Assembly: GCA_050186295.1 (NCBI GenBank)
Contig: JBFWYP010000006.1
Coordinates: forward strand, 65,336 to 129,335
Direction of reading: 5' to 3'
From: Thermoanaerobaculia bacterium
Lineage (GTDB): Bacteria; Acidobacteriota; Thermoanaerobaculia; Multivoradales; JAGPDF01
DNA: 64,000 nt
Position 1 is the stretch's first letter. The number at the start of each line of letters is the position of its first letter. Positions 13,489 through 44,855 of this stretch are shown one piece after another. The notes under the pieces are model-generated. The model searched no databases and was not told where the DNA came from. It was given only the letters and a program-made list of their open reading frames with translations. The translations under genes were made by a program, and so were the position numbers.

Positions 13489-14154
<666 letters not shown>

Positions 14155-14187
14155 GCGGCGGCTCCTTGTCGTCGCTCTCGAACCGGT

Positions 14188-15830
<1,643 letters not shown>

Positions 15831-15834
<4 letters not shown>

Positions 15835-16805: not shown

Positions 16806-17707
16806 ACCGAGGCGACTCCTTCAACCGAAGCGCCGGCGCTCCGGTGTTTCCGGCGTTCGCTGCGCAACATCCAGAGGATCGAGCCGAAGAGCACCAGCAG
16901 GGTCACCGTCGCCGCCACCTTGAGCGACAACATGGTGCCGGCGGTGTACTTGCCCAGCGCGGCGTCGTAATTGAAACAGAGCAGGAGGAGCTTCTCGGCG
17001 AGTCCGCCGATCCGCCCTTCGCCGGCCTCGAACAGGGCCAGCTTGAGATCCTTCGGCGCGTACTCGACGCCGTAGAGGTAGCGCGAGATGCGACCGTCGG
17101 CGGTCAGCGCGATGACGCCGCTGGCGTGCGCGTACTGACGGGTGGTCACGTCGTAGGCATAGCGGAAGCCGGCGGCCTCGGTGAGCCGCGCGACGTTTGC
17201 TTCGTCCCCGGTCAGGAAGTGGATTCCGGAAGCGCGCTCCGGGTGGCCGTAGCGCGCCACGATCGCGGCCTTCTTCTCGGCGGCGAGCTCGGCGGTGTCG
17301 GTCGGGTCGAAGCTCACGAAGAGGAGCTCGAACTCGTCTCCCGGAGCGTAGGGAATTCCCTTCATCGACGCCGCGACACCGATCGCCGTCTGCGTGCACA
17401 GGACGGGGCAGCGGTAGTAGACCAGCGCGAGGAGGACCGGCTTCTCGCCGAAGTAGTCACCGAGGCGGACGGCGCGGCCGGTCTCGTCGCGCAGCTCGAG
17501 ATCGAGCGGCACGCTCACGCCGAGGCGCTGGTCGAAGCCGACGCGCTCCTGGATCTGCTGCGCGGTCAGGGCGCCCGGCTGCGACTCCCGGCGGGCGAGA
17601 CCCGGCCCGGTGAACACCTTCTCGGCGACCAGCGGCGCGGCGAGCTGGCTCGAGAGAGCCAGCGCCAGCAGGGCGCGGTGGGCGACGGAGGGGTGCATCG
17701 GACTCAT
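16802..17707 (-). CDS. SCO1/SenC copper chaperone
   Basis: Thioredoxin-fold CPVLC copper-binding motif (YYRCPVLCTQ), a conserved His, and a C-terminal TM anchor. ATGA overlap with ctaC. Confidence 0.8.
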   Translation of the reverse strand: MSPMHPSVAHRALLALALSSQLAAPLVAEKVFTGPGLARRESQPGALTAQQIQERVGFDQRLGVSVPLDLELRDETGRAVRLGDYFGEKPVLLALVYYRCPVLCTQTAIGVAASMKGIPYAPGDEFELLFVSFDPTDTAELAAEKKAAIVARYGHPERASGIHFLTGDEANVARLTEAAGFRYAYDVTTRQYAHASGVIALTADGRISRYLYGVEYAPKDLKLALFEAGEGRIGGLAEKLLLLCFNYDAALGKYTAGTMLSLKVAATVTLLVLFGSILWMLRSERRKHRSAGASVEGVASV

Positions 17708-17717
17708 TCGGCGTGAC

Positions 17718-18185
17718 TCAGTGCCCCGACCCGGGCGCGGTGTGCTCTTCGGCCGCGGCGGCGGCGACGGGCTCCGGCGCAGCGACCGGCGGCGTCGCCG
17801 TGGCGTCGGCGGCCGGCTCGGGCACGGCGAGGCGGTCGATCGCTCTCTCGATCGGCATGTGGGCGATGCCGGCTCGCTGGTCGACCCAGCCCCAGGAGGA
17901 CAGGGCGGCGCTGGTGCTCCGGCGGAGCTCCTGGAGCTCGACCTCTGGCCGGGACTGGAGATGCGGCTCCGGCGGCACCGCTGGAACGCGGGCTTCGGCG
18001 AGCGGTGACGGCTTCGGGTCGGCCCGCTCGGTCCAGCTCCCGAGCGCCTTGTAGAGGAAGTAGCCGACGATCAGGGAGCCGATGGTGATTCCGGCGAGCC
18101 AGGCGGCGATCTCGAGGACCCGCCGGACGTCGATCTCGGAATCGAAACCGCCGGACTGCCCGGGAGACGGAGAGTGACTACTCAT
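17718..18185 (-). CDS. Small single-TM membrane protein of the ACIII-caa3 operon (possible ActG-like)
   Basis: 155 aa with one TM helix (LEIAAWLAGITIGSLIVGYFLY) and a Pro/Ala-rich tail. Assigned by position between actF and sco1; 8-nt overlap with actF. Confidence 0.4.
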   Translation of the reverse strand: MSSHSPSPGQSGGFDSEIDVRRVLEIAAWLAGITIGSLIVGYFLYKALGSWTERADPKPSPLAEARVPAVPPEPHLQSRPEVELQELRRSTSAALSSWGWVDQRAGIAHMPIERAIDRLAVPEPAADATATPPVAAPEPVAAAAAEEHTAPGSGH

Positions 18186-19374
18186 GGCCGAGGGCTTCCT
18201 GGAGGTTGGGGGCGTTGACCGGCAGGAGCGGCGCCTTGGCGAGCTCGCGGGTGAACGCGAAGAGCCAGATGCCGCCGAGCGCCAGGGGAGTCGCGAGATA
18301 GAGCCAGTGGATCGAGAACGCCTCGTGGTGCCAGGTCGGGCGGGAGAGCCACACCAGGTCGACCAGGCGCATGAACAGGACGAATGCCGCGACCCGGGCG
18401 AGCGAACGGGTGCGCTCCTTGACGCCGCGCGAGAGCAGGATCAGGAACGGGAAGAAGAAGTGGAAGACGAGGAGTCCGGCAGCCACCACCCCCCAGCCGC
18501 CGTGGAAGCGCTCCTGGAACCAGATCGCCTCTTCGGGCAGGTTGCCCTGCCACATGATGATGTACTGCGAGATCGAGAGGTAGGTCCAGAACATCACGAA
18601 GGCGAACAAGAGCTTGCCGTAGTCGTGCGAGAGCGTGCGGCTGATCACCGCTTCCATCGGCGCCCGCTGGCGCAGCCAGTTGACGATCAGGATGACGAAC
18701 GACATGCCGGCGAGCGCCTGGCCGGCGACGAAGATCCCGCCGTAGAGGCTCGAGAACCAGTGCGGATCCAGCGACATCAGCCAGTCGAAGCCGAGGAAGG
18801 TGTTGATCACCACCCAGAGCAGCAGACCGACGGCGCTCATGTTGTGCATCGAGCCCTTGATCGCCGGATCGCCCGTGGCGTCCTGGCGCCGCGACTTGGC
18901 GGAGAGGACGTAGGCATAGAGGCTGAAGATCGCGATGGCGAAGATCGTCCGGCCGATGAAGAACGGCACGTTGAGGTAGGGCGCCTTGTGCTCGAGCAGC
19001 GCGTCGCCGGCCACGTGCGCCGGATCGGCCCAGAGGAAGAGCTCCTTCATGCCGAAGAAGAGCGGTATCGCGGCGAGGCCGACAAGGGGCAGGGTGCGCG
19101 AGCCGGCCTCGAGGATGCGGCGTGCCGCGAGGCCCCAGGCGCCGCCCGACAGGTGTTGCATGAGCAGGAAGCCGAGACAGCCGGAGGCGACGGTGTACCA
19201 GAGGAGCCAGGCGACGAGATAGGCCTGGAAGAACTCGGCGCGGGCGACGAAGAGACCGGCGACCGAGGCCGCGGCGGCGACGGCTCCGACGACGAGCGCC
19301 TTGCCACCGAGGCCCGAGAGCGCGCCGGGGGGCGCGACGTCTTCTGCGTGGAGTGGGAAATGGAGCGTCGTCAT
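18178..19374 (-). CDS. actF: Alternative complex III subunit ActF (NrfD/PsrC-like polytopic membrane subunit)
   Basis: A ~400-aa, 10-TM NrfD-like protein paralogous to ActC, in actABCDEF order. Confidence 0.75.
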   Translation of the reverse strand: MTTLHFPLHAEDVAPPGALSGLGGKALVVGAVAAAASVAGLFVARAEFFQAYLVAWLLWYTVASGCLGFLLMQHLSGGAWGLAARRILEAGSRTLPLVGLAAIPLFFGMKELFLWADPAHVAGDALLEHKAPYLNVPFFIGRTIFAIAIFSLYAYVLSAKSRRQDATGDPAIKGSMHNMSAVGLLLWVVINTFLGFDWLMSLDPHWFSSLYGGIFVAGQALAGMSFVILIVNWLRQRAPMEAVISRTLSHDYGKLLFAFVMFWTYLSISQYIIMWQGNLPEEAIWFQERFHGGWGVVAAGLLVFHFFFPFLILLSRGVKERTRSLARVAAFVLFMRLVDLVWLSRPTWHHEAFSIHWLYLATPLALGGIWLFAFTRELAKAPLLPVNAPNLQEALGHE

Positions 19375-19396
19375 AGCGCGGTCGGGAGTCCTCGTT

Positions 19397-20041
19397 CTAG
19401 TGGTGCCCGGCTTCGCCGGAATGGGCGTCGGATTCGGCGGCGACGGGCTGGTCGAGTCGTGCCCGGTCCTCGGGAGCGAGCGTTCCGGCGTCGACGTGCT
19501 GCGAGAGCTGCAGCGCGCGGATGTAGGCCGCGATCGCCCAGCGATCGGCGGGCGGGACCTGCGGCGCGTAGGTCGACATGACGCCGAAACCGTTGGTCAT
19601 GACGTCGAAGAAGTAGCCCACCGGCGCCTCCCGCAGCCGTGCCTCGTGGTACGAGGGGGGCTGCTTGTAGCCGCGCTGGACGACCATCCCGCGGCCGTCG
19701 CCCAGCTTGCCGTGACAGGGGGAGCAGAAGATGTCGTAGCGCTCGCGGCCTCTGAGAAGCAGGGCGCGGGTCATCGGCATCGGCAGTTCGGTCGTCATCG
19801 AGCCGTCGGCGGCACGGCCGGTGAAGAACAGCTTGTCCTCCCGGAGCTCGCCCCGCGCCACGGTGTGGGCGGGAATCTCGCGGATGCCGCTGCCGTCGGC
19901 GAAGAAGTCGCTCGACCGGTACGGCTTGAGCTTCGGCTGATTGTGCATGTCCTGGCGGCAGCCTGCGGCGACGAGCGCCAGTGCAGCCAGGGAGAGAGCG
20001 AGCGCCGGACCGGTCCGGCGGCGGAGGTCAGGACTCGACAT
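19397..20041 (-). CDS. actE: Alternative complex III subunit ActE (lipoprotein monoheme cytochrome c)
   Basis: Lipobox LVAAGC and a single CSPCH heme-binding motif. Confidence 0.7.
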   Translation of the reverse strand: MSSPDLRRRTGPALALSLAALALVAAGCRQDMHNQPKLKPYRSSDFFADGSGIREIPAHTVARGELREDKLFFTGRAADGSMTTELPMPMTRALLLRGRERYDIFCSPCHGKLGDGRGMVVQRGYKQPPSYHEARLREAPVGYFFDVMTNGFGVMSTYAPQVPPADRWAIAAYIRALQLSQHVDAGTLAPEDRARLDQPVAAESDAHSGEAGHH

Positions 20042-20581
20042 CGTGAACCTCCAGGGCGCCGGTGCCGAGCAGGAACTCGCGCGTCGCCGTGCGCTCGAAC
20101 TTCGCGTCCTCGGCCTCGACGCAGAGGAAGAAGCCGTCCCGCGAGGCCTTGCGGCGGAAACTCTCGACGTTGAACACCGGGTGATAGGGCTGCGGCAATC
20201 CGTTGAGCGCCATCATGCCGATCCCCGCCGAGAACGACGCGAGGAGGATGGTGCATTCGAAGATCACCGGGATGAACGCCGGCCAGCTGTTGTACGGCTT
20301 GCCGCCGATGTTCATCGGGTAGTCGATGGTGGAGGTCCAGAACTCGAGGCCCCATCCGCCCAGCGCGCCCATGATGCCGCCGGCGAGACAGATCAGCGGC
20401 ACCCGCGAACGCTGGTGGTTGCAGACCTCTTCCGAGATCGCCTCGACCGGGAACGGAGTGAACGCGTCGATCGCGTTGAATCCCGCCCGCCGTGCCTTGC
20501 GCACGGCCTCGAGCAGCTCCTGCGCCGATCCGTACTCCGCGAGGATGCCGTAAATGCCGGCCGTCGATTCCGTCATGGCAG

Positions 20582-20585
<4 letters not shown>
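20028..20585 (-). CDS. actD: Alternative complex III subunit ActD
   Basis: About 185 aa, with the real start MTAMTESTAGIYGIL... overlapping the actC stop (ATGA). One C-terminal TM helix. Assigned by position and size between actC and actE. Confidence 0.6.
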
Positions 20586-25074
<4,489 letters not shown>

Positions 25075-25100
25075 GTCGGGCTTCACGGATCCCCTGTCAA

Positions 25101-25751
25101 TTAGCGATGGCAGGTCGAGCAGCTGACCTTGCTCTGTACGTTGTGGGCTTCGGCCCAGATCGCCTGCTGCGCCGCGAGGTCGGCCGGGGGCTGCCAGAAG
25201 ACGTTGGTGACCTCGGAGGCCGGCCGCAGGTTCTTCACCGGATCGCGGTGGCAGTCGAGACACCAGCTCATCGTCAGCGGCTGACCCTGGTACATGAGCG
25301 GCATCTTGTCGACGGGGCCGTGGCAGGTGGTGCAGGCCACGCCCTTGGCGACATGGATCGAGTGGTTGAAGTAGACGAAGTCGGGCAGGTCGTTGACCCG
25401 GTTCCAGCGGATCGGCTTGCCTTCGCGGTAGCTCGCCCGGATCGGCTCGAGCAGCTGGGCGTTCGTCCACAGCTGGTTGTGGCAGTTCATGCAGGTCTGG
25501 GTCGGCGGGATCCCCGCCGACGCCTGGCTCTCGACCGCGGTGTGGCAGTAGCGGCAGTCGATTCCGATCTGGGCCACGTGGTGATCGTGGGAGAACGGCA
25601 CCGGCTGTTCGAGAACGATCCCCTGACGCGTCACGTAGCCGGAATGGGCGACGCGCCAGAGCGCGAAGCCTCCCGCCGCGGCGAGGAAGAGGGCCACGAA
25701 GATCGACGCCTTCGCAAAGGCGTTCGCACTGCGAGAGAAGATCTGCGCCAT
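25101..25751 (-). CDS. actA: Alternative complex III subunit ActA (membrane-anchored pentaheme cytochrome c)
   Basis: An N-terminal TM anchor followed by five CxxCH motifs (CRYCH, CMNCH, CTTCH, CLDCH, CSTCH). Confidence 0.8.
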   Translation of the reverse strand: MAQIFSRSANAFAKASIFVALFLAAAGGFALWRVAHSGYVTRQGIVLEQPVPFSHDHHVAQIGIDCRYCHTAVESQASAGIPPTQTCMNCHNQLWTNAQLLEPIRASYREGKPIRWNRVNDLPDFVYFNHSIHVAKGVACTTCHGPVDKMPLMYQGQPLTMSWCLDCHRDPVKNLRPASEVTNVFWQPPADLAAQQAIWAEAHNVQSKVSCSTCHR

Positions 25752-28453: not shown

Positions 28454-28602
28454 TTCGGCTCCTTGGAGTTCCCGGTCGGGGGTGACGTTCGCGGGCGATC
28501 CCGGGTGTGGTCTCGGCGTCGGACTCGGCGCCCGCATGCGAGGGTGCGATTGTAACCGAGCCGGTTGCGGAAGCACGACGAGCGGGGTCTAAGATCTCCG
28601 AC

Positions 28603-31600
28603 ATGCGATCCGCGCTCCGCCTCTCGAGGATTCTCCACCGGTTCGGTTCCTCCCGTTCGTGCGCGGCAGGGGTCGCCTTTGGTCTCGTCGTCGTCGTCGT
28701 CGCCGGCTGCCAGGCGGGTGCCGCGACGATCGTCGAAAACGGAAAGAAGAGCGCGATGTCCGAAGCCGGCCCAGAGACCTGGAAGGAGATCGATCGCCTG
28801 GTCGGCGAGCAGAAGCTCGAGGCGGCGGCGAAGCTGGTCGATGCCCGGGTCGCTGCGGCGGACGAAGCCCGGAACGACGACGAGCTCGCCCGGGCACTGG
28901 TGCGGCGGGCGCAGCTCCGCATCGCCCTCGGCGGCTTCGCGACCGCGGTCGAGGCGCTGCGCGCGAGCCGCTGGCCGGAGAAACCGCTCGCGCATGCCGC
29001 GGTCGAGCTCTACTACGCGCACGCCCTGCTCGACTATCTCGAGGCCTACGACTGGGAGATCCGGCAGCGCGAGCTCGTCGTCTCGGGCGAGACTCTCGAC
29101 CTCGAGCGCTGGACCGCGGCGCAGCTCGCGGACGAAGCCGAGCGGGCGTTCCTCGACGTCTGGGAGAGCCGCGAGGCGCTCGGCGCCGTCGCAGTCGACG
29201 ACTTCCCGTACCTGCGCCCGAACGACTTCCCCGAAGGGATCCGCGACACGCTGCGCGACGCGGTCTCCTACCTCTTCGTCGAGCGGATGCTCGGCAACTC
29301 GCGCTTCTGGTCGGCCGCCGAATCGAACGAGGCCTGGCAACTCGACCTCGAGAACCTGATCGCCGACCGCCCCGTCGTGCCCGCGACGGGGCCGGTCCAC
29401 CCGCTGCTCCGTGCCGCCGTCGTGCTCGCCGACCTCGAGGCGTGGCACCGCGGCAGGAGGGAGCTCGGGGCCGAGCTCCAGGCGCGGATCGCGCGGCAGG
29501 CGACGATCGCCGATCACCGCGAGGGCGCCACGGACCGCGGGCGCCTCCGCGCGGAGCTCGAGCGGCGGCTGCCGCGCTACCGCGACGACCCGTGGTGGGC
29601 CGTCGGCGTCGCCGACCTCGCCGGCGACATCGATCGCGACGACCCGGCGCCGGATCACCGGATCCGCGCGCGCGAGCTCACGCTCCGGGGCGAGCAGGCC
29701 TATCCCGGGAGCTACGGCGCCGACCGCTGCCGGCAGCTGCGGGAGGAGATCGAGGCGCCCGACTTCTCGGTCCAGGCGATGTCCTCGGACGGACCGCGGG
29801 AGCGGTCGTTCGAGGTGACGCACCGCAATCTGCCGCGTCTCCACTTCCGTGCCTTCCGTGTCGATCCCGACGCCGAGCTCGGGCGGGCGGAGTTCCGGGG
29901 GGTCTTCCCCAACGACGCGCGCGAGATCGAGCGCCGGCTGGCCGACAGACCGGTCGCCGAGTGGACCGCCGAGCTGCCGCCGACGCCGGACTACTCGTCG
30001 CACCGCACGTTCGACACCCCGCCCCTCGCCGAAGCGGGCCTCTACTTCGTCGTCGCCTCCGCCGACCGGTCGTTCCGGGCGCGGGGCAACCGGCGCGTGG
30101 CGGTTCCGTTCCTGGTTTCGGACCTCGTCCTCCTCGAAGGGGCGGCGAACGAGAATCCCTGGGAGGTCCGCGTCGTGTCGGGAGGAAGCGGCGCGGCGAT
30201 CGCCGGCGCCGAGGTCGCGCTCTACCGCAACACCTGGCGCCGGGCCCCCGAGCGGATCGCGACGGAGAAGAGCGGTGCGGACGGCCGCGCGCGGCTCGCG
30301 GCGGAGACCGGCCGCGACGCGACGAACTTCCTCGTGGTGGCGCGGCGCGGGGGCGACATCGCCTTCTCGCAGCGCTACCTCTACGGCCGGCGGAGCGAGC
30401 CTTCCGAGCAGACCGCCGCCCTCGTCTTCACCGACCGCGCGATCTACCGGCCACTGCAGAAGGTCGAATGGAAGATCCTGGGCTACCGCAGCGGTCCGGC
30501 GCGCGGGCGGCTGGTACCGTCGCCGCGGATGCCGGCGACGGTCTCGCTCCTCGACCCGAACGGCGAGGAGGTGCAGGAGCTCGCCGTCACCACGAACGAG
30601 TTCGGGACGGCGGCGGGCGCGTTCGAGATTCCGGCCGGGCGCCTCCTCGGGCTCTGGACGGTCCGCACGACGGCGAACGGCTCGGCGTCGATCCGTGTGG
30701 AGGAGTACAAACGGCCCACGTTCGAGGTCGAGATCGGCGAGCCGGACTCGGCGCTGCGGCTCAACCGTGTCGCCGAGCTCGTCGGGAACGCGCGCTACTA
30801 CTTCGGCCTGCCGGTGGCGGGCGGCAGGGTCGCCTGGCGCGTGACGCGGACGCCCGAGTGGCCGGTCTGGTGGCGGTTCTGGGCGCCGCCCGGCGGCGCC
30901 ACCGAAGCGCAGACGATCGCCAGCGGTGTGGCTCCGCTGTCCGACGACGGCACCTTCCGCGTCCGCTTCACACCCGCCGCCGACGAGCGCGAGAAGACGA
31001 GCGGCGCGACCTATCGCTACCGCCTCGAGGCGGACGTCACCGACGACGGCGGCGAGACCCGGAGCGGCGACCGTACGTTCCGCCTCGGCTGGGTGGCGGT
31101 CGAGGCGACGCTCGAGAAGGAGGATCCGCTCTTCGTCGCCGGTGAGGCGATGACCGTCGTCGCGACGCGCCGCGATCTCGACGGAGTCGCGCGTCCGGGC
31201 AGCGGGAGCTTCCGGCTCGTCGCGCTCGACGTGCCGGCGAGAGCGCCGCTCCCGGCCGCGCTCCCCGTCCGTCCCGCGCACGCGGCGGCGAAGGACGATC
31301 CGTACGCGACGCCCGGCGACGCGCTCCGGCCGCGCTGGTCGGGCGGCACGACCGTCGCCGACACGCTCGCCTTCTACGCCGACGGCCGCGAAGTACGGCG
31401 CGGCGAGCTGGCGCACGATGCGCGGGGGCGCTCGACGATCGACCTGGCGGGCGTCCCGGCCGGTGCCTATCGCCTGCGGTACGCGACGACCGACCCGTTC
31501 GGCGAGACCTTCGAGAACCGTCTCGACTTCGTCGTCGCCGCGACCGCAGGCGGAGGCGCGAAACTCGCGCTGCCGGCGGCGATCCTCTTCGATCGCGGCG

Positions 31601-34600
31601 AGGCCCGGCCGGGCGATACCGCCAGGCTCTGGGTGCACTCCGATCTCGGTGACGCTCCGGCCGAAGTCGAGCTCCACCGCGGAGACGAGATCGTCTGGCG
31701 GAAGCAGGTGCGTCTCCGGGGCACGACCTGGTTCGACGTCCCGGTGGCCGAGGCGGATCGCGGCGGGCTCGCCGCGCGCCTGGTGCTGGTCGCCGAGCAT
31801 CAGCTGATGGCGCCCGGCGTTTCGCTCGCCGTGCCGTGGACGAACCGTGAGCTGGCGGTCGAGATCTCGTCGCTCCGCGACAAGCTGACGCCGGGCGGCA
31901 GGGAGAGCTTCCGCGTCACGGTGAAGGACGCGAAGGGGCGCGCCGTCGAGGCGGGCGCCGCCGAGCTCCTCGCCTCGATGTACGACCGCAGCCTCGACCT
32001 CTTCGCCCCGTTCTCGCAGCCGCGGCCGATCGCCCTCTTTCCGACCACGACCTCCCTTCCGCCGGTGCAGAGCAGCCTCGGCACGACCGGTGCGGTCTGG
32101 ATCCGCGACGAAGAGTGGGTCAAGCGCAGCGTGGCGCGCAGCGTCTCGGGCGATTCGTTCGTCGAGATCTCGCCCTACGGCATCGGCGGACCGGGCGGGA
32201 GGTTCCGCCGCTTCGGCGGCTACGCGCGCGGCGGCGTCGCCATGGCCGACGCGGCGATGCCGGCTTCGGCTCCGCCACCGCCGCAGCCGCTGGCGAAGGA
32301 GGCGGAGGCGGACCAGGGAACGGCGGTGGCGGAGAGCCTCGCGGTGCGGTCGGAGGCCCCCACGGCGGACGTCCCGCTGCGCTCGAACTTCGCCGAGACG
32401 GCGTTCTGGCGACCGCAGCTCCTCACCGGCGCCGACGGTTCGGCGACGATCGAGTTCACCGTGCCCGACTCGGTGACTTCGTGGCGGCTCTGGGTGTCGG
32501 CGCTCACGAAGTCGTTCGCCTCGGGGTTCTCGGAGCGCCAGGTCGACTCGGTGAAGGAGCTGATGGTGCGGCCGTATCTGCCGCGCTTCCTGCGCGAGGG
32601 GGACCGCGCCGAGCTCAAGGTGGTGGTGAACGACGCCGGCGATTCGCCGCTCTCCGGCACGGCGCGACTCGAGATCTTCGACCCGGAGACGAACGAGTCG
32701 CTGCTCGGCGAGTTCGGTCTCGACGCCTCGTCCTCGTCGCGGCCGTTCCGGGTCGAACCGGGCAGGGGAGTCGACCTCCTCTTTCCGCTCGCGGCGCCGC
32801 ACCGCGTCGGCCCGACCGCCTTCAAGGTCACCGCCACGGCGGGGAATCTCTCGGACGGCGAGCTGCGGCCGCTTCCGGTCCTGCCGTCGCGGATCCGGCT
32901 CGCGCAGTCGCGCTTCGTGACCCTGAAGAACGCCGACCGCCGCGAGATGACGTTCGACGAAATGAAGCTCCCCGATCCGACGCGCGAGAACGAGCAGCTC
33001 GTGGTGACCGTCGACGGCCAGCTCTTCTACTCGATGCTCGACGCCCTGCCGTATCTCGTCGACTATCCGTACGAGTGCACCGAGCAGACGATGAACCGCT
33101 TCGTCTCGACCGGGATGCTGGCGAGCCTCTTCGACGGCTACCCGGCGCTCGCCGCGATGGCCGCGGAGATGGCGGAGCGGGAGACGCCGTACGAGCGCTT
33201 CGATGCCGCCGATCCGAACCGCAGCATGGGACTCGAAGAGACTCCCTGGCTGCGCGAGTCGCGCGGCAGCGCCGCCGGCGCGGAGGGCGTCGATTTCCTG
33301 CGCGTGCTCGACCCGACGGTCTCGCGAGCCGAGCGCGACGACGCCCTGGCCAAGCTCGCGAAGGCGCAGCTGCCGAACGGCGGCTTCCCCTGGTTCTCCG
33401 GCGGTCCGGCCTCGCCCTACATCACTCTCTATCTCGCGAGCGGCTTCGCGCGGGCGGCCGAGTTCGGTGTCGACGTGCCGAAGCCGATGGTCCAGCGCGC
33501 CTGGAGCTATCTCGGCGCCGAGGCGAAGCGCGACTGGCTGCCGAAGGCGATCGCCGACGACTGCTGCTGGGAGCTCCTCACGTTCCTCAACTACGTCGCC
33601 TCGTCGTATCCCGACGAGTCGTGGGTGGGCGACTTCCTCGAGCCGGCCGACCGGAAGCGGATCCTCGACTTCTCGTTCAAGCACTGGAAAGAGCACGCCC
33701 CGCTCCTCAAGCTCCAGCTCGCGCTGACGCTCCAGCGCGCGGGGCGTCCCGCGGACGCGAAGCTGGTGCTCGCGAGCGTCATGGACTCGGCGAAGACGAC
33801 GCGCGACGAAGGCACCTTCTGGCAGCCGGAGGACCGCTCCTGGCTCTGGTACAACGACCGGATCGAGACCCACGCCTGGGCGCTGCGGGCGCTGATGGAG
33901 ATCACCCCCGACGATCCGCGCCGCGACGGACTGGTGCAGTGGCTGTTCCTCAACAAGAAGCTCAACCACTGGAAGTCGACGCGCGCGACGGCGGAGGTGC
34001 TCTATTCGCTCGCCTGGTACCTCCGGGCGACGAATCAGCTCGCGGTGCGCGAAGAGGCGTCCGTCACCGCGGCGCACCGGACGACGACGTTCGTCTTCGA
34101 ACCCGAACGCTTCACCGGCAGGAAGAACCAGGTCGTCGTCGAGGGTGCGAAGCTCGACGCGGAGAAGCGGCCGGCCGATGCCACGGTCGTCGTCGAGAAG
34201 ACGACTCCCGGTCTCCTCTTCGCCTCGGCGACCTGGCGGTTCTCGACCGAGGAGCTGCCGGCGGAGGCGCGCGGCGATCTGTTCGAGGTCACGCGGCGCT
34301 ACTTCCGGCGCGTCAAGACGGGCGACGAGGTCACGCTTCGTCCGCTCGACCGCAGCGCGCGCCTCGCGGTCGGCGATGAAGTCGAAGTCCAGCTCTCGGT
34401 CCGTGCGAAGGCGGCGGCCGAGTACGTGCACCTCCGCGATCCGCGCCCGGCCGGGCTCGAGCCCGATCGCGCGGTGTCGGGGTGGAAGTGGGATCTGGGC
34501 CTCGCGCGCTACGAGGAAACGCGCGACAGCGGCTCGAACTTCTTCTTCGAACGGCTGCCGGCCGGCGAGTACACGATGAAGTACCGCCTGCGGGCGAACC

Positions 34601-34704
34601 TGGCCGGCGAGTTCCGGAGCGCCCCCGCCCAGCTCCAGTCGATCTACGCTCCCGAGTTCGTCGCCTACTCGGCCGGCGAGCGGCTGGTCATCGCCTCGCC
34701 CTGA
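28603..34704 (+). CDS. Alpha-2-macroglobulin family lipoprotein with thioester motif (bacterial A2M, ~2033 aa)
   Basis: Lipobox VVVVAGC after the signal peptide, thioester motif YPYECTEQTMNRF (CxEQ), and a long MG-domain-like region. Start trimmed from 28507 to the ATG at 28603. Confidence 0.75.
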   Translation: MRSALRLSRILHRFGSSRSCAAGVAFGLVVVVVAGCQAGAATIVENGKKSAMSEAGPETWKEIDRLVGEQKLEAAAKLVDARVAAADEARNDDELARALVRRAQLRIALGGFATAVEALRASRWPEKPLAHAAVELYYAHALLDYLEAYDWEIRQRELVVSGETLDLERWTAAQLADEAERAFLDVWESREALGAVAVDDFPYLRPNDFPEGIRDTLRDAVSYLFVERMLGNSRFWSAAESNEAWQLDLENLIADRPVVPATGPVHPLLRAAVVLADLEAWHRGRRELGAELQARIARQATIADHREGATDRGRLRAELERRLPRYRDDPWWAVGVADLAGDIDRDDPAPDHRIRARELTLRGEQAYPGSYGADRCRQLREEIEAPDFSVQAMSSDGPRERSFEVTHRNLPRLHFRAFRVDPDAELGRAEFRGVFPNDAREIERRLADRPVAEWTAELPPTPDYSSHRTFDTPPLAEAGLYFVVASADRSFRARGNRRVAVPFLVSDLVLLEGAANENPWEVRVVSGGSGAAIAGAEVALYRNTWRRAPERIATEKSGADGRARLAAETGRDATNFLVVARRGGDIAFSQRYLYGRRSEPSEQTAALVFTDRAIYRPLQKVEWKILGYRSGPARGRLVPSPRMPATVSLLDPNGEEVQELAVTTNEFGTAAGAFEIPAGRLLGLWTVRTTANGSASIRVEEYKRPTFEVEIGEPDSALRLNRVAELVGNARYYFGLPVAGGRVAWRVTRTPEWPVWWRFWAPPGGATEAQTIASGVAPLSDDGTFRVRFTPAADEREKTSGATYRYRLEADVTDDGGETRSGDRTFRLGWVAVEATLEKEDPLFVAGEAMTVVATRRDLDGVARPGSGSFRLVALDVPARAPLPAALPVRPAHAAAKDDPYATPGDALRPRWSGGTTVADTLAFYADGREVRRGELAHDARGRSTIDLAGVPAGAYRLRYATTDPFGETFENRLDFVVAATAGGGAKLALPAAILFDRGEARPGDTARLWVHSDLGDAPAEVELHRGDEIVWRKQVRLRGTTWFDVPVAEADRGGLAARLVLVAEHQLMAPGVSLAVPWTNRELAVEISSLRDKLTPGGRESFRVTVKDAKGRAVEAGAAELLASMYDRSLDLFAPFSQPRPIALFPTTTSLPPVQSSLGTTGAVWIRDEEWVKRSVARSVSGDSFVEISPYGIGGPGGRFRRFGGYARGGVAMADAAMPASAPPPPQPLAKEAEADQGTAVAESLAVRSEAPTADVPLRSNFAETAFWRPQLLTGADGSATIEFTVPDSVTSWRLWVSALTKSFASGFSERQVDSVKELMVRPYLPRFLREGDRAELKVVVNDAGDSPLSGTARLEIFDPETNESLLGEFGLDASSSSRPFRVEPGRGVDLLFPLAAPHRVGPTAFKVTATAGNLSDGELRPLPVLPSRIRLAQSRFVTLKNADRREMTFDEMKLPDPTRENEQLVVTVDGQLFYSMLDALPYLVDYPYECTEQTMNRFVSTGMLASLFDGYPALAAMAAEMAERETPYERFDAADPNRSMGLEETPWLRESRGSAAGAEGVDFLRVLDPTVSRAERDDALAKLAKAQLPNGGFPWFSGGPASPYITLYLASGFARAAEFGVDVPKPMVQRAWSYLGAEAKRDWLPKAIADDCCWELLTFLNYVASSYPDESWVGDFLEPADRKRILDFSFKHWKEHAPLLKLQLALTLQRAGRPADAKLVLASVMDSAKTTRDEGTFWQPEDRSWLWYNDRIETHAWALRALMEITPDDPRRDGLVQWLFLNKKLNHWKSTRATAEVLYSLAWYLRATNQLAVREEASVTAAHRTTTFVFEPERFTGRKNQVVVEGAKLDAEKRPADATVVVEKTTPGLLFASATWRFSTEELPAEARGDLFEVTRRYFRRVKTGDEVTLRPLDRSARLAVGDEVEVQLSVRAKAAAEYVHLRDPRPAGLEPDRAVSGWKWDLGLARYEETRDSGSNFFFERLPAGEYTMKYRLRANLAGEFRSAPAQLQSIYAPEFVAYSAGERLVIASP

Positions 34705-39927: not shown

Positions 39928-40599
39928 TTGAGCCTGAAACTCCGCACGACGACGGTCGTACTCTTCGCCGCCCTGGTCCTGGTGCTCCCGATGAGCTCGT
40001 TCGCGAGCCACGTCGCGGGCGTGAAGGCGACTGTGACCAACGCCGACCCGAACACGCTCCAGGTCGATCTCGACCTCACGGAGTATTACGACGGCAGCTC
40101 GATCCCCTACTCCACGGCCTACATCGGCTACAGTGCGGTTTATCCCACGTTCTACCGCCCGGCGATCGACTGGGGTGACGGTTCGTACCTGTCGCCGCAG
40201 TCCTACCCCAACGGGATCCCGATCGTCGCGACGAGCACCCCGATTTCCGGCTTCCCCGGGACGTACCACATCTATCGTGGGAGCTTCTCGCACACCTACC
40301 CGGCCCAGGGCAACTACAACATCACGGTGAGCTCGACCTGCTGCGGCGGCGTCACCAGCTCCAACGTCACGATCACGGGCAACCCGGTCATCGTTACGGT
40401 CACGCAAGGGGTAGTTCAGGGCCGGGGTCAGGGGACCTACTTCGTCCTCAACTTCACCAACCAGGCGCAGGCGAACCTCGTCGACGCCGGCGGCGGCGAA
40501 GAGAGCATTCTCGCCATTCCGACCCTCTCCGCGACGAGCCTCCTGATGCTCGCGGGCGCGCTGGCCTTCGCCGGGCTGCTGCTCCTGCGCCGCTCCTGA
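39928..40599 (+). CDS. Secreted protein with IPTL-type C-terminal protein-sorting signal (motif + TM + basic tail)
   Basis: Signal peptide (TTG)SLKLRTTTVVLFAALVLVLPMSSFAS. The C-terminus AIPTLSATSLLMLAGALAFAGLLLLRRS is tripartite. RBS GAGGGGGG 8 nt upstream. An alternative ATG start lies at 39847. Confidence 0.55.
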   Translation: MSLKLRTTTVVLFAALVLVLPMSSFASHVAGVKATVTNADPNTLQVDLDLTEYYDGSSIPYSTAYIGYSAVYPTFYRPAIDWGDGSYLSPQSYPNGIPIVATSTPISGFPGTYHIYRGSFSHTYPAQGNYNITVSSTCCGGVTSSNVTITGNPVIVTVTQGVVQGRGQGTYFVLNFTNQAQANLVDAGGGEESILAIPTLSATSLLMLAGALAFAGLLLLRRS

Positions 40600-40622
40600 C
40601 GCACATCGATTCCCCCCGATCG

Positions 40623-40659
40623 ACGGGCGACGCGGCGACGCGTCGCCCGTTTTCGTTTT
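40623..40659 (+). terminator. Rho-independent terminator (12-bp GC stem, GCGA loop, U-tract)
   Basis: ACGGGCGACGCG-gcga-CGCGTCGCCCGT followed by TTTCGTTTT, read directly. It lies 24 nt after the stop of the IPTL-type gene. Confidence 0.55.
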
Positions 40660-40684: not shown

Positions 40685-41686
40685 TCAGAAAGGCGTTGCG
40701 CCCGTGGAGTCCGGCGTGCGCCGGATGGCGAGCAGCGTCAGGTCGTCCGAGCGCCGACCGCCGGCGAGGAAGGCATCGACATCGTCACGGCAGGCGGCGA
40801 GGAGCTCCTCGAGCGGCAGGTGCGCCGCACGGCGCAGGGCGGCGGCGGCGCGCCCGATGCCGTACTCCTCCTCGCCTTTCGCCGCCTCGGTCCAGCCGTC
40901 GGAGTAGAGAAGGAGCGTCTCTCCGGGCTGCACGGAGAGCTCGTGCGCGGCATAGGTCGAATCGCCGAAGAGACCGAGCGGCAGGCCGGCCCCCTCGATC
41001 GGCCGGACGCCGCGGGCGTCGGCGAAGAGCGGCCGCGGGTGGCCGGCGTTGGCGAGCGCCAGCCGGCCGCCGTCGCCGAGCGCGAGGGCGGTGAGTGTCG
41101 CGTACGAAGCCGAACCGGTGGCGTCCGCGAAGAGCCGGTTGGCGCGGCGAACGAGCTCCGGCAGGGCGAGCTGCGCGCCGCTGAGCGCGTGGAAGAGGGC
41201 GTGGAGGTTCGACTGCAGGAACGAGGCTCCGACCCCCTTGCCGACGACGTCGCCGAGGATGAGGTGCAGGGGCTCGCCGCTCGCCTGCGGGCGGAGGACG
41301 TCGACGTGATCGCCCGAGACCGCGCCGTGCGGCTCCCAGAGATAGGCGATCTCCCATTCGCAGTGCCGGACGCGACGCTCGGGGAGGAGCCGGCGCTGAA
41401 TCTGCGCCGCCGCCTCGAGGTCCCGCTCCAGGGCGTGCCGGGCCTCCTCCGACAGACATTCGATGCAGACCCGGAGCAGCGGGTCGGCCGCCATGCGACG
41501 GCGCGAGATCGGCTCCTGGCACTCCTCGCAGACGCCCCATTCGCCGATCTCCATCGCGGCGAGCGCCGCGTCGACGCGGCGCATCAGCTCGACCAGACGC
41601 TCCTCGGGGCGCTCGCGGGTGAGCTCGGCGAGGCGGTCGCGCCGCGCCGTCAGTCGCTCGCGGACGACCTCCTCTTCCCGTGTCAT
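40685..41686 (-). CDS. DksA/TraR-type C4 zinc-finger domain fused to PP2C (SpoIIE/RsbU-type) Ser/Thr phosphatase
   Basis: The N-terminal coiled coil plus C-x2-C-x17-C-x2-C (CEEC...CIEC) matches the DksA/TraR signature. The C-terminal PP2C motifs are GDVVGKGVGASFL, LLYSDGWTEA and DDLTLLAI. Start trimmed to the ATG at 41686, which overlaps the upstream stop (ATGA). Confidence 0.7.
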   Translation of the reverse strand: MTREEEVVRERLTARRDRLAELTRERPEERLVELMRRVDAALAAMEIGEWGVCEECQEPISRRRMAADPLLRVCIECLSEEARHALERDLEAAAQIQRRLLPERRVRHCEWEIAYLWEPHGAVSGDHVDVLRPQASGEPLHLILGDVVGKGVGASFLQSNLHALFHALSGAQLALPELVRRANRLFADATGSASYATLTALALGDGGRLALANAGHPRPLFADARGVRPIEGAGLPLGLFGDSTYAAHELSVQPGETLLLYSDGWTEAAKGEEEYGIGRAAAALRRAAHLPLEELLAACRDDVDAFLAGGRRSDDLTLLAIRRTPDSTGATPF

Positions 41687-42162
41687 CCGGCGGCTCCGGC
41701 TCGCGCCAGCAGCACGATCTGGCCGGAGTGATAGGCGTTGTGCTGCAGCACGCCGAGCAGCATCCCCCGCAGCGTCGGGTCGGAACCGGCGACCGTGTCC
41801 TCCAGACGCTCGGCATCGAGGGCGCGCACGTCGGCGTGGAGTCCGCGATGGGCGGTCTCGAGATCCGCGAGCAGATCGCTCCAGGCTTCGTCGCTCCCGT
41901 CGTCGGGCCGGTGCCAACCGTCCTCCGAGGGAGCCTCCTGCTTGCCGGCGATCCGGCGGCGCGTCTCCTCGAGCCAGAAGGTGAGATGGGAAACGATCTC
42001 GAAGATGTTGTGCGAGCCCGGGATCGGGCGCCGGCGTGCGGTCGCGGCGTCGACTCCGTCGAGGGTCTCGCCGAGCGCCGGGCCGTGCCAGGCGCCGCCG
42101 CGGAACGAACGTTCGAGCTGATCGGCAAACCGTTCCGTGTCGGACTGCGCCAGCGATCTCAT
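41683..42162 (-). CDS. DinB/YfiT-like (DinB_2 family) protein
   Basis: A ~159-aa four-helix-bundle family with a conserved His triad (HNIFEIVSHL...HNAYHSGQ). It is translationally coupled to the downstream ZnF::PP2C gene. Confidence 0.6.
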   Translation of the reverse strand: MRSLAQSDTERFADQLERSFRGGAWHGPALGETLDGVDAATARRRPIPGSHNIFEIVSHLTFWLEETRRRIAGKQEAPSEDGWHRPDDGSDEAWSDLLADLETAHRGLHADVRALDAERLEDTVAGSDPTLRGMLLGVLQHNAYHSGQIVLLARAGAAG

Positions 42163-42390
42163 GGCTCTCCTCCCTGCGCCGGGGCGCGAGCGACCTGCTG
42201 CGGAGACCGGGCCGGGGACCTCGTGATCCGGTTCAGGGAGTCATAACCGGCCCGGTCGCCGGGCGATTCCACCCGCCCGTTCCACCGCTTGACTGTCGCG
42301 GCGGATCCTAGGATAGCGTCCCGGAACGAACCAGGAGTTGGAAGTTGGGAACTCGGGAGATCTGTCCGTACGGAGATCCGCGACGCGACC

Positions 42391-43449
42391 ATGCGCCTCT
42401 CGTACCTGCGATTCTCGCCGCTGCTCCTCGCCTTGATGGCGAGCGCAGCGCAGGCTGTGGAGCCGCCGCCGGAGCGGCTGTCGGCCACCGGCCTCTACGC
42501 CGACATCACCACCAAGCGCGTGGCCGAAGGTCTGGTCGGCTTCACTCCGCAGTATCCGCTGTGGACCGACGGCGCGACGAAGCGGCGCTGGATCTACCTG
42601 CCGCCGGGCACGTTCGTCGACGCCTCCGATCCGGACGCCTGGCAGTTTCCGGTCGGAACCCGGGTCTGGAAGGAGTTCGCCTTCGAGCGGCGTGTCGAAA
42701 CGCGAATGATCGAGCTCGCCGATTCCGGCTGGCGGTTCGTCTCGTATCGCTGGTTGCCGGACGGCAGCGACGCCGTGCTCGCGGCCGAGTTCGGGGAGCG
42801 CGGCGTCTACACCGTGGCGCCGGGTGTCCGGTACGACCTGCCGAGCCGCTACGACTGCCGCGCCTGTCACGAGGGCAACGTCTCGCGCCTGCTCGGCTTC
42901 ACCGCGCTCCAGCTGTCGAGCGATCGCGACCCGGCTGCGATCCACGGCGGTGCGCCGAACGAAGGCGATCTCGATCTCGCGGCCCTGGTCGCCCGCGGGC
43001 TGGTGCGGAACCTTTCCCCAGCGCTCGTCGCGGCGCCGCCGCGCATTCCGGCACGGACGCCGCTCGAACGCACGGCGCTGGGGTATCTCGTCGGCAACTG
43101 CGCCAACTGCCACAACGATCGCGGCGCCCTGGCCGACCTCGGCTTCTCGCTCGAGGTGCGCGTCGCTCCGGACAGCGACCCGGTGCCGGGAGCGATCCGG
43201 ACCGGCTTCGGTCAGCCGGCGCACTATCAGCCGGCCGGTGAGCCGGCGCACCTGCGATTCGCCGCCGGCGAGCCCGAGGAAAGTGCGGTCTGGCGGCGGG
43301 TTTCGAGCCGCGTCGCCGTGACGCAGATGCCGCCGCTCGGCACGAAGCTCGTCGACCGCGAGGCCGTCGAGCTCCTGGAACGATGGATCCGCAGCGCTTC
43401 GTCCGTGGAGGGCGAAGTTTCGAAGTCGTCCGAAAAGGAGATGCGATGA
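42391..43449 (+). CDS. Secreted c-type cytochrome-like protein with two CxxCH motifs
   Basis: Signal peptide MRLSYLRFSPLLLALMASAAQA, with CRACH and CANCH heme-binding motifs. The N-terminal ~150 aa lack heme motifs (unknown domain). Confidence 0.5.
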   Translation: MRLSYLRFSPLLLALMASAAQAVEPPPERLSATGLYADITTKRVAEGLVGFTPQYPLWTDGATKRRWIYLPPGTFVDASDPDAWQFPVGTRVWKEFAFERRVETRMIELADSGWRFVSYRWLPDGSDAVLAAEFGERGVYTVAPGVRYDLPSRYDCRACHEGNVSRLLGFTALQLSSDRDPAAIHGGAPNEGDLDLAALVARGLVRNLSPALVAAPPRIPARTPLERTALGYLVGNCANCHNDRGALADLGFSLEVRVAPDSDPVPGAIRTGFGQPAHYQPAGEPAHLRFAAGEPEESAVWRRVSSRVAVTQMPPLGTKLVDREAVELLERWIRSASSVEGEVSKSSEKEMR

Positions 43450-44078
43450 GAGGGAGAATGTCGTTTTCGGGGGTTGTCGTGTGGGTGATTGCCGCGGGTT
43501 CGCTGGCGCCGCTCCTGGCGCAGGGGGAGGCGCCCCCGCTGCCGCCGCCGCTCTCGGAGGCCGCGCTCGCCGCGGCCACGTCGCGCGCCAACCCGGTCGC
43601 TCGCGGTGAGTTCCTGGTCCGCATGGGCAGCTGCAACGACTGCCACACGCCGACCAAGATGGGGCCGAACGGCCCCGAGACCGACTACTCGCGTCTGCTC
43701 TCCGGCCATCCCGAGGCGGCGGGCGTGCCGCCGTACGTGCAGTTTCCGGAAGGGAGCCCCTGGATGGCCGCCTTCTCCGGCACCTTCACCGCCATCTCGG
43801 GTCCGTGGGGAATCTCGTTCACACGCAACCTGACGCCCGACAAGGAGACCGGTCTCGGCTCCTGGACGGCCGACGAATTCGTCGCCACGATCAAGAGCGG
43901 GAGAAAGCAGGGGCGCGGACGCGAGCTCCTGCCGCCGATGCCGTGGCCGCAGTGCATGGCGCTCTCCGAGGAGGATCTGAGGGCGATCTTCGCCTACCTG
44001 CAGTCGATCCCGGCGATCAAGAACAAGGTCCCGGATCCGGTTCCCCCCCCGGCTCCGCCCGCCGCGCCGGCGCACTGA
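43446..44078 (+). CDS. Monoheme cytochrome c family protein
   Basis: Signal peptide and a single CNDCH motif. AAGGAG RBS 5 nt upstream. The start overlaps the upstream stop (ATGA). Confidence 0.6.
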   Translation: MRGRMSFSGVVVWVIAAGSLAPLLAQGEAPPLPPPLSEAALAAATSRANPVARGEFLVRMGSCNDCHTPTKMGPNGPETDYSRLLSGHPEAAGVPPYVQFPEGSPWMAAFSGTFTAISGPWGISFTRNLTPDKETGLGSWTADEFVATIKSGRKQGRGRELLPPMPWPQCMALSEEDLRAIFAYLQSIPAIKNKVPDPVPPPAPPAAPAH

Positions 44079-44171: not shown

Positions 44172-44855
44172 TCAGGCGGCGACGGCCGGAGCCTCTTCGC
44201 CGTCGACGCTCCCCGGCAGCCGGGCTCCGAGCAACCACTCGGCGAGCCTCGCCCAGACCAGTCCGAGCGCGTTGTGGAGGTGGAGCGAGAGAAGGAGCGC
44301 CAGCGCGCCGGCGAAGGCGAGCGGCAGCGCGCCGAGGAACGTGGTCGGAGTCCAGGGGCCGAGCTCGACGTGGCCGCGACCGAAGAGCAACACGAACGGC
44401 GCAGCGACGAAGGCGACGGGTACGATCAGGGTGACGAGCGAAACCACCCAGCCGACGAGCCCCAGGGGAAATTTGAGACCGAGGAAGAGGAGTCCCTTCC
44501 AGAGCGCGGCCGAGCTGCCGACGGCACGGATGGCGACCAGACGCTTGCCGTTCACGGGGCGCGTCGGATCCAGTCGTTCCGGGACGGCAGCACCGAGGAG
44601 GTGGATCGCCAGCTGCCGCTCGAGGCCCTGCGCGAGCCACGCTCCCGTCAGGGTGAGGAAGAGCAGCAGCAGTCCGACCCAGACCAGGGTCAACGGGACT
44701 CCGGCAGCGAAACCGACCGTGAGGCCGACGAAATAGACCAGGCCGAGCGGAAAGGCGAGCCAGAGGTAGAGCATGCTGCCGTAGGTGCGGAGCCGGAACG
44801 GAACGGCGAAGAACTCCACGATCGGTCGGCTGCGGACGCGGGGATCGATTCTCAT
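44172..44855 (-). CDS. Polytopic membrane protein (putative-sensor-like N-terminal domain family)
   Basis: Four to five TM helices and no catalytic motifs. AGGAGGA RBS before the ATG at 44855. Confidence 0.45.
   Translation of the reverse strand: MRIDPRVRSRPIVEFFAVPFRLRTYGSMLYLWLAFPLGLVYFVGLTVGFAAGVPLTLVWVGLLLLFLTLTGAWLAQGLERQLAIHLLGAAVPERLDPTRPVNGKRLVAIRAVGSSAALWKGLLFLGLKFPLGLVGWVVSLVTLIVPVAFVAAPFVLLFGRGHVELGPWTPTTFLGALPLAFAGALALLLSLHLHNALGLVWARLAEWLLGARLPGSVDGEEAPAVAA

Follow-up and report, generated by a model that had tools for sequence, protein, structure and literature searches.

RsbU-class phosphatases are a main route into bacterial stress responses, and each is distinguished by its input domain and its partner. 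Co-encoded RsbT binds a hybrid surface formed by the N-domain and α-helical linker of RsbU and, once bound, orders the linkers and makes the catalytic domains dimerise, which activates the phosphatase; a like arrangement for RsbP with RsbQ, an α/β-hydrolase, was inferred from AlphaFold2 models and earlier genetics (Baral et al., eLife 2025, PMC12143880, which mentions neither DksA nor zinc domains). Working DksA/TraR proteins reach the active-site region of RNA polymerase (RNAP) with a coiled coil (DksA residues 35–109), and a DxxDxA motif at the coiled-coil tip (DksA) or in the N-terminal helix (TraR) is essential for function (PMC4010833, PMC9239242). TraR R48 or DksA R125 contacts the β′ rim helices and is important for binding there (PMC9239242). 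Here we analysed a two-gene cassette in a 64,000-nucleotide (64-kb) stretch of a Thermoanaerobaculia genome (contig JBFWYP010000006.1; hereafter the window), in which a SpoIIE/RsbU-type PP2C phosphatase with an N-terminal, truncated DksA module (mini-DksA) is translationally coupled to a DinB_2-fold protein. The cassette is a real, conserved bacterial signalling unit. By comparison with RsbQ–RsbP and RsbT–RsbU, and with about even confidence, we read it as a partner-controlled stress phosphatase for which mini-DksA would be the regulatory input.

The phosphatase gene (41686..40685, minus strand) encodes 333 amino acids (aa) plus a stop. The list of open reading frames (ORFs) stretches it to a TTG at 41917 (410 aa); we set the start at the ATG at 41686–41684 because the gene call deposited for contig JBFWMX010000012.1 of the metagenome-assembled genome GCA_050251375.1 and an alignment of 26 homologues, all of which begin M-T/S there, agree. 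Directly upstream lies the DinB_2-fold gene (42162..41683, minus strand; 159 aa). Its TGA (41685–41683) shares an ATGA start/stop overlap with the phosphatase ATG (41683..41686, minus strand), and a GGAG Shine–Dalgarno-like sequence lies inside the 3′ end of dinB_2. An earlier note on this DNA had placed the two genes at 40685–41686 and 41683–42162 with the ATGA overlap, and the sequence, the ORFs and the gene call all bear this out.

Pfam assigned PF07228 SpoIIE to the phosphatase at 140.8 bits (cut-off 25; residues 138–323), whereas PF01258 zf-dskA_traR passed marginally (25.5 bits against a gathering score of 24.9; residues 51–80). The AlphaFold2 model of the 333-aa protein, built on the 26-sequence alignment, had a mean predicted local distance difference test (pLDDT) score of 88.1. 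The PPM/PP2C catalytic domain spans residues 105–323 (40718..41374, minus strand). D126, D129, D146, D263, D314 and D315, the aspartates of the PPM acidic motifs, are invariant in the 26 sequences; as residues of these motifs, all six are putative metal ligands. Because these residues are invariant and the catalytic motifs thus intact, the phosphatase is most likely active, and its sequence predicts, most likely, an Mn/Mg-dependent PP2C serine/threonine phosphatase. The complete SpoIIE/RsbU-type domain described in the earlier note therefore stands.

Searching the PDB with the whole model, Foldseek returned the Rv1364c RsbU domain and Pseudomonas aeruginosa RssB and SiaA at E of about 1e-14, and RsbX and SpoIIE also appeared in the list (overall E 1e-14 to 1e-11). 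The solved catalytic domains of Rv1364c, RssB and SiaA are 22–29% identical to the phosphatase, and the NCBIfam SiaA and RssB models gave partial, sub-threshold matches on the phosphatase part (SiaA, E 4.8e-17). The closest PP2C paralogues (30–38% identity) have GAF, FHA+GAF or HAMP at the N-terminal position, several of them from the same metagenome-assembled genomes (MAGs) as cassette members. Since the paralogues put these domains there, mini-DksA takes the 'input' position within a modular family of phosphatases.

The N-terminal module consists of an antiparallel helical hairpin, a C4 zinc ribbon and a helix that leads into the enzyme. By DSSP on the models, the hairpin (41546..41680, minus strand) comprises residues 3–25 and 29–47 with R26-P27-E28 at its tip; in these models it corresponds to the DksA coiled coil minus its distal half. 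The ribbon (residues 50–78; 41453..41539, minus strand) carries C53, C56, C74 and C77, spaced C53-x2-C56-x17-C74-x2-C77 on direct reading of the sequence. The four cysteines, W50, G51 and P69 are invariant among the 26 aligned sequences. The α-helical linker (residues 80–100; 41387..41449, minus strand) is helical in both models, and L86, R88, D89, Q97, R98, L101 and P102 are invariant in the linker region of the same alignment. This helix doubles as the C-terminal helix of the DksA fold and the regulatory linker (α0) of RsbU-type phosphatases, consistent with the role of the linker ahead of RsbU-type PP2C domains (PMC12143880).

A separate model of residues 1–105 (pLDDT 90) had only DksA-family proteins as significant structural neighbours in Foldseek, namely DksA2 (4IJJ), Chlamydia DksA (6PTG) and Escherichia coli DksA, free and RNAP-bound. 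Atu0905 (2KQ9) was among the best matches to the module in both sequence and structure. The family profile matched E. coli DksA at E 9e-9, aligning residues 24–82 with DksA 85–143, and matched DksA chains at E 8e-9 to 1e-7. Because the profile reaches E. coli DksA and the structural neighbours are confined to the DksA family, the N-terminal module is a true DksA relative in fold and sequence. The earlier note had proposed a coiled coil followed by a C-x2-C-x17-C-x2-C finger of the DksA/TraR type. The AlphaFold2 model shows a helical hairpin there, and sequence reading confirms the spacing; the PF01258 pass, the profile match and the structural neighbours confirm the type. The note had also allowed for a generic zinc ribbon, and Zn_ribbon_8 reached only 11.5 bits, against 25.5 for PF01258.

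A search of a 5.8-billion-protein collection returned 664 phosphatase homologues with the same fusion, the PF01258 plus PF07228 architecture for which the earlier note had suggested looking. Self-match (100%) aside, the best 120 of the 664 are 324–362 aa long and 58–69% identical, with 89–100% query coverage. Their names are generic ('SpoIIE family protein phosphatase' or 'RsbU'), and they come from many independent assemblies, cultured Geothrix species among them; because these assemblies, including the cultured Geothrix genomes, share architecture and length, the fusion is real. Scanning one genome per GTDB species, we found a full-length match in ~42 species, belonging to Thermoanaerobaculia, Holophagae/Geothrix, Vicinamibacteria, Terriglobia-labelled MAGs, Krumholzibacteriota, Latescibacterota, Ignavibacteria and Bacteroidota.

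The homologues form two subgroups, one with four cysteines (Cys4 or C4), which contains the window protein, and one in which the fourth ligand is His (C3H; C-x2-C-x17-C-x2-H, 'CLDH'). The C3H subgroup (loci L035, L038–L049 and L051, from Ignavibacteria, Acidobacteriota and Bacteroidota MAGs) is more divergent, at 34–45% identity, and about equal to the Cys4 subgroup in diversity among representatives. When a profile of the N-terminal 80 residues was run against 1.84 billion representatives, 232 clusters matched at E < 1e-10. Among the best 150 matches every full-length protein was a PP2C fusion, and the remainder were contig-end or frameshifted fragments. We rejected a few apparent cases of the module on another output, among them an OmpR-like tail (P0133) and a TatD-like tail (P0202), as they are singletons that look like chimeric or frameshifted metagenome fragments.

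The DinB protein matched PF12867 DinB_2 at 57.2 bits (cut-off 24.8), which agrees with the family named in the earlier note, and PF04978 MST (mycothiol-S-transferase) at 38.1 bits; solved mycothiol S-transferases matched it weakly (E about 0.05–0.08). Each residue of a His triad (H59, H141 and H145) is present in 34/34 aligned DinB sequences, and the same alignment yields two subfamily motifs, LADQLERxFRGGAWHGP and GSDPT(L/V)RG. DinB_2 lies immediately upstream of the phosphatase in 32/34 C4 loci and is missing from the C4 loci only in a Krumholzibacteriota genome. All 32 DinB-bearing C4 loci have a 4-bp ATGA or GTGA overlap, and it is kept across several classes and phyla. Translational coupling between the two genes, which the earlier note had read from a single locus, is thus real and strictly conserved. 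Adjacency was also found in a C3H-type Vicinamibacteria member (L046), and in a distant relative from a Marinacidobacterales MAG (L069, 5700–7322) it is kept with the order swapped, DinB_2 being downstream; nearly all C3H members have no DinB neighbour. Starting instead from the DinB protein, we retrieved 507 homologues, of which the best 120 (self-match aside) are 53–63% identical. The phosphatase cassette was found again in 3/3 long-contig contexts examined, so that in every context examined this DinB subfamily stands next to a mini-DksA phosphatase.

We clustered all ORFs in the neighbourhoods of 34 C4-subgroup and 14 C3H-subgroup loci, and the only conserved neighbours were DinB_2 and a gene with ABATE and zf-CGNR domains, a combination described as a putative ligand-sensing zinc-finger regulator (PMC2954205). 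The ABATE-CGNR gene is divergent from the cassette in 24/34 C4 loci; the earlier note had recognised neither this regulator nor DinB_2 as an obligate partner. In these CGNR-bearing loci the intergenic region of ~85 bp holds 3–5 copies of GGTTA(G)/(C)TAACC, against ~0.1 expected, in a fixed layout: TCTAACC, ~13 nucleotides (nt), cTTGACAGGTTAG, ~14 nt, TAnnnTAACC, ~18 nt, GGAGGTTAG, a few nt and the dinB_2 start. Given this layout, the sites overlap a σ70-like −35 (TTGACA), the −10 and the ribosome-binding site (GGAGG). Examples between the CGNR gene and dinB_2 are L003:7419–7503, L007:7389–7479 and L004:7876–8000. Every locus that has the regulator gene also has the array, as does L011, where the gene was probably lost to the contig end; none of the nine loci that lack the gene, the window among them, has it. 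From its sequence and distribution, the GGTTAG array is a candidate operator of an uncharacterised CGNR regulator family.

The window itself has no ABATE-CGNR gene, and TTGACAGGTTAG occurs nowhere in the 64 kb within two mismatches. The upstream intergenic region (42163..42390), common to dinB_2 and a divergent cytochrome-c-like gene, contains neither the CGNR operator array nor a σ70 consensus promoter. With no CGNR gene and no operator array, the window copy is a regulator-less form of the cassette.

We propose the following mechanism for the partner-controlled phosphatase. Mini-DksA, with its hairpin of ~20-residue helices, Cys4 ribbon and C-terminal helix, would sit in the N-terminal input slot; the C-terminal helix would run into the linker, and the linker would pass activation to the catalytic domain via dimerisation. 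The DinB_2-fold protein, a putative metal-binding protein whose translation is coupled to that of the phosphatase on a shared mRNA, would be the dedicated partner. It could bind mini-DksA and the linker, or supply or sense a small-molecule or thiol-linked signal, and so switch the phosphatase on, in which case mini-DksA together with helix 80–100 would be the docking and transmission element for DinB. The divergent ABATE-CGNR regulator would, in most lineages but not in the window, additionally repress the operon at the GGTTAG sites. The output would be dephosphorylation of a phosphoprotein substrate encoded elsewhere. We infer the DinB–phosphatase contact, the direction of regulation, the signal and the substrate; the DinB_2 protein is proposed as the activating or sensing partner because of the analogy with RsbT and RsbQ together with its obligate, translationally coupled linkage. 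A thiol or electrophile signal is plausible because the input has a Cys4-Zn site and the partner resembles thiol transferases.

Several observations weigh against this proposal. R64, the equivalent of the rim-helix arginine, is mostly retained, and because all DksA/TraR members of known function bind RNAP, homology alone points to the polymerase. A STAS or other substrate was not identified in the 64-kb window or in the 34 C4 neighbourhoods. In a mirror-tree comparison (distance-matrix correlation), DinB correlated with the N-terminal module at r 0.66 and with the catalytic domain at r 0.74, and partial r was 0.22 for the N-terminal module against 0.48 for the catalytic domain, giving no signal specific to the N terminus. 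Finally, the phosphatase can work without DinB, since Krumholzibacteriota members and nearly all C3H members have none.

Homology to DksA raises the possibility, put forward in simpler form in the earlier note, that the phosphatase is tethered to RNAP, its DksA 'head' docking on the β′ rim helices where the secondary channel opens, short of the active site like Rnk. A PP2C domain held there could dephosphorylate RNAP or an RNAP-bound factor, or compete with DksA and Gre factors. The retained part of the module (DksA residues ~85–143) is the 'head', the very part that contacts the channel rim, and it includes R64, the equivalent of DksA R125 and TraR R48. Arginine occupies this position in 25/26 diverse representatives and 84/115 close homologues; the rest have L, Q, S, E, T, G or C, so that 27% of the close homologues are substituted. 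Rnk, which has a short coiled coil, occupies the RNAP channel without acting on catalysis and so shows that a short coiled coil need not preclude binding (PMC4010833). The lack of partner-switching proteins linked to the phosphatase gene also fits this alternative.

Set against this, the module lacks what DksA and TraR use within the channel. Its hairpin helices have 19–23 residues compared with about 33–35 in DksA, ~16 fewer per helix, and in the profile alignment its tip lies opposite DksA residue ~88 rather than 74. Ahead of the first Cys, 109/115 close homologues have just 50–54 residues. A DxxDxA motif upstream of the finger was found in 1/115 close homologues and 1/26 diverse representatives, which is chance level. 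Both features of DksA/TraR channel action, the long coiled coil and DxxDxA, are therefore absent throughout the family. The NCBIfam DksA/TraR/YteA models agree, as all gave partial matches with their C-terminal half, far under cut-off: TIGR02420, the DksA equivalog, scored 42.2 against 115.5 (E 9e-11; residues 26–77 on model positions 56–107 of 110), NF033459 scored 34.1 against 105 and TIGR02419 scored 21.3 against 59.7.

Zinc-finger-only relatives also argue against a default of DksA-like action: Rhodobacter sphaeroides RSP0166 failed to complement a dksA mutant, Atu0905 (2KQ9) has a coiled coil of different length and no known function, and RNAP binding by such finger-only relatives, Atu0905 included, was left open (PMC4010833). 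The DinB-linked L069 protein begins right at the zinc ribbon and has no hairpin, and in the paralogues the N-terminal slot is a sensor slot. Contact with RNAP thus looks less likely than ordinary partner-controlled signalling, and we regard tethering as unlikely. A fuller version, in which mini-DksA docks at the channel mouth and stations both the PP2C domain and DinB there to dephosphorylate RNAP or a bound factor, or to gate access of DksA and Gre factors under stress, seems rather unlikely.

A thiol, redox or electrophile switch is also an unlikely account by itself, though it could be a sub-mechanism of the partner-controlled phosphatase. Oxidation or alkylation of the Cys4-Zn site would free the zinc, remodel the hairpin and linker and alter phosphatase activity, while DinB_2, as a metal-dependent thiol S-transferase, would detoxify the same stressor. 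The Cys4 finger of DksA is itself reported to act as a thiol switch. Consistent with such a switch, the four cysteines are invariant across the C4 subgroup, the DinB His triad is invariant in its own alignment, and DinB matches the mycothiol-S-transferase model (38 bits) and, weakly, the solved enzymes. In L069 a gene resembling methylated-DNA-protein-cysteine methyltransferase (PCHRV motif, recognised by eye) lies just upstream. However, structural zinc sites are usually invariant anyway, and the widespread C3H subgroup, mostly without DinB, has His in place of the fourth Cys. Around the cassette, neither thiol-system genes nor peroxidase genes are conserved.

Shared expression may be all that links the two products, DinB_2 being a stress enzyme in its own right and the phosphatase a separate regulator, served by one operon and one repressor and never interacting. 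Proteins of the DinB type usually act as enzymes on their own, the phosphatase occurs without DinB in some lineages, and the mirror-tree signal does not rise above shared phylogeny. Co-expression alone nevertheless sits poorly with a 4-bp overlap maintained in 32/32 loci of several classes and phyla, with an adjacency that survives inversion of the gene order, and with a DinB subfamily that three independent look-ups (3/3) placed only beside the phosphatase and that is very conserved, subfamily-specific surface motifs included. We therefore consider it quite improbable. The weakest alternative, raised in the earlier note, is a sequencing frameshift or assembly artefact joining a DksA-like gene to a PP2C gene, and its probability is close to nil, as 664 homologues of the same architecture and length in independent assemblies, the 26-sequence alignment and a helix that runs unbroken across the DksA–PP2C junction at high pLDDT refute it.

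The surroundings of the cassette agree with the earlier note in offering no partner-switching proteins. Pfam found no STAS protein, RsbW-type kinase or sigma factor in the called genes within 10 kb on each side or in 33 further window ORFs. Searching the 294 window ORFs of at least 60 aa by phmmer with SpoIIAA, RsbV and RsbW returned nothing, at low sensitivity, and small genes may escape. None of these three protein types is conserved around the 34 C4 loci. We also considered anti-phage defence and rejected it, as neither the phosphatase, DinB nor the CGNR regulator had a PADLOC match.

Downstream, a GC-rich hairpin with a 13-bp stem (40622..40651, plus strand; terminator-like scan) lies between the phosphatase gene and a convergent gene (39928..40599, plus strand). 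It is followed on the plus strand by TTTTCGTTTTCG, and the T-run is confined to that strand. The hairpin is probably the terminator of the plus-strand gene, is possibly bidirectional, and marks the end of the two-gene unit. The convergent gene encodes a secreted-looking protein of 223 aa with a weakly IPTL-CTERM-like C terminus (17.7 bits, below the cut-off of 20.8) and otherwise no family match.

On the other side, two c-type-cytochrome-like genes (42391–44078, plus strand; PSCyt1 and Cytochrome_CBB3/Cytochrom_C) are divergent from the dinB_2–phosphatase operon and are not conserved in other loci. A gene for a 227-aa membrane protein with PF13796 'Putative sensor' (44175–44855, minus strand; 92 bits) lies ~2 kb further up from the cassette. 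A PF13796 gene adjoins the cassette in Geothrix (L003:9242–9883; L009:7481–8173) and in one further locus; we do not call it linked because 4/34 loci are too few. Elsewhere in the window, 13492–25470 (minus strand) encodes cytochrome c oxidase subunits III, I and II, SCO1/SenC, c-type cytochromes and a 1164-aa molybdopterin/4Fe-4S protein beside a polytopic membrane protein, a cluster that resembles an alternative complex III plus oxidase supercluster. An ORF of ~2,000 aa (28507–34704, plus strand) encodes a bacterial alpha-2-macroglobulin (MG2, A2M, bMG10; deposited gene call).

In the literature we found no paper on DksA fused to PP2C, SpoIIE or RsbU, on DinB paired with PP2C, or on a CGNR operator; the DksA–PP2C two-domain combination is known in databases as automatic annotation. 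To the RsbU-class phosphatases the cassette would add a type of input, the truncated DksA fold, and a type of partner, a DinB-fold metalloprotein, neither of which was found in the searched literature. It is widespread among the Acidobacteriota and their relatives, which abound in soils and sediments and whose signalling is almost uncharacterised, and its presence in cultured Geothrix species makes it genetically testable. It also bears on the role of the many DksA/TraR-family proteins without a DxxDxA tip. If the module binds RNAP, protein phosphorylation would be coupled to transcription in a new way, and a phosphatase stationed on RNAP by way of the DksA/TraR binding site would be the first such enzyme known. 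If it does not, the module shows the DksA fold put to new use as a general-purpose sensor or protein-interaction domain. For the poorly understood CGNR regulator family, the GGTTAG repeats across the promoter would supply a testable DNA site.

Among known systems, the cassette is most readily compared with RsbQ–RsbP, which serves energy stress in Bacillus subtilis, and with RsbT–RsbU. All share a SpoIIE/RsbU-class phosphatase with an N-terminal regulatory domain and an α-helical linker, and a small partner in the same operon, RsbQ being itself an enzyme fold. The modules differ: where RsbP has a PAS domain and RsbU a four-helix bundle, the cassette has the mini-DksA zinc-ribbon hairpin, and in place of the RsbQ hydrolase or the RsbT kinase fold stands a DinB_2 fold, whose interaction is proposed by analogy. 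Unlike the Rsb systems, the cassette has no linked RsbV/STAS protein, RsbW kinase or sigma factor in the 64-kb window or the 34 C4 neighbourhoods. SiaA and RssB of Pseudomonas and Rv1364c provide the closest solved catalytic domains; they carry other N-terminal modules (membrane/HAMP, receiver, PAS) and have other partners, with no zinc ribbon and no DinB.

With DksA, TraR and DksA2 the module has in common the CxxC-x17-CxxC ribbon and its flanking helices; the window protein also has arginine at the R125/R48-equivalent position, where 27% of the close homologues differ. It differs in its shorter coiled coil and in lacking both the DxxDxA tip and the N-terminal region of DksA, and its C-terminal helix, unlike that of DksA, continues into an enzyme domain of 230 residues. 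To Atu0905, RSP0166 and Rnk the likeness is confined to the zinc-finger 'head' and a short or irregular coiled coil; these are small stand-alone proteins, whereas here the module is the N-terminal domain of an enzyme. The cassette DinB shares its Pfam DinB_2/MST matches and its His triad with the mycothiol/bacillithiol-S-transferase superfamily, yet forms a distinct and tightly conserved subfamily.

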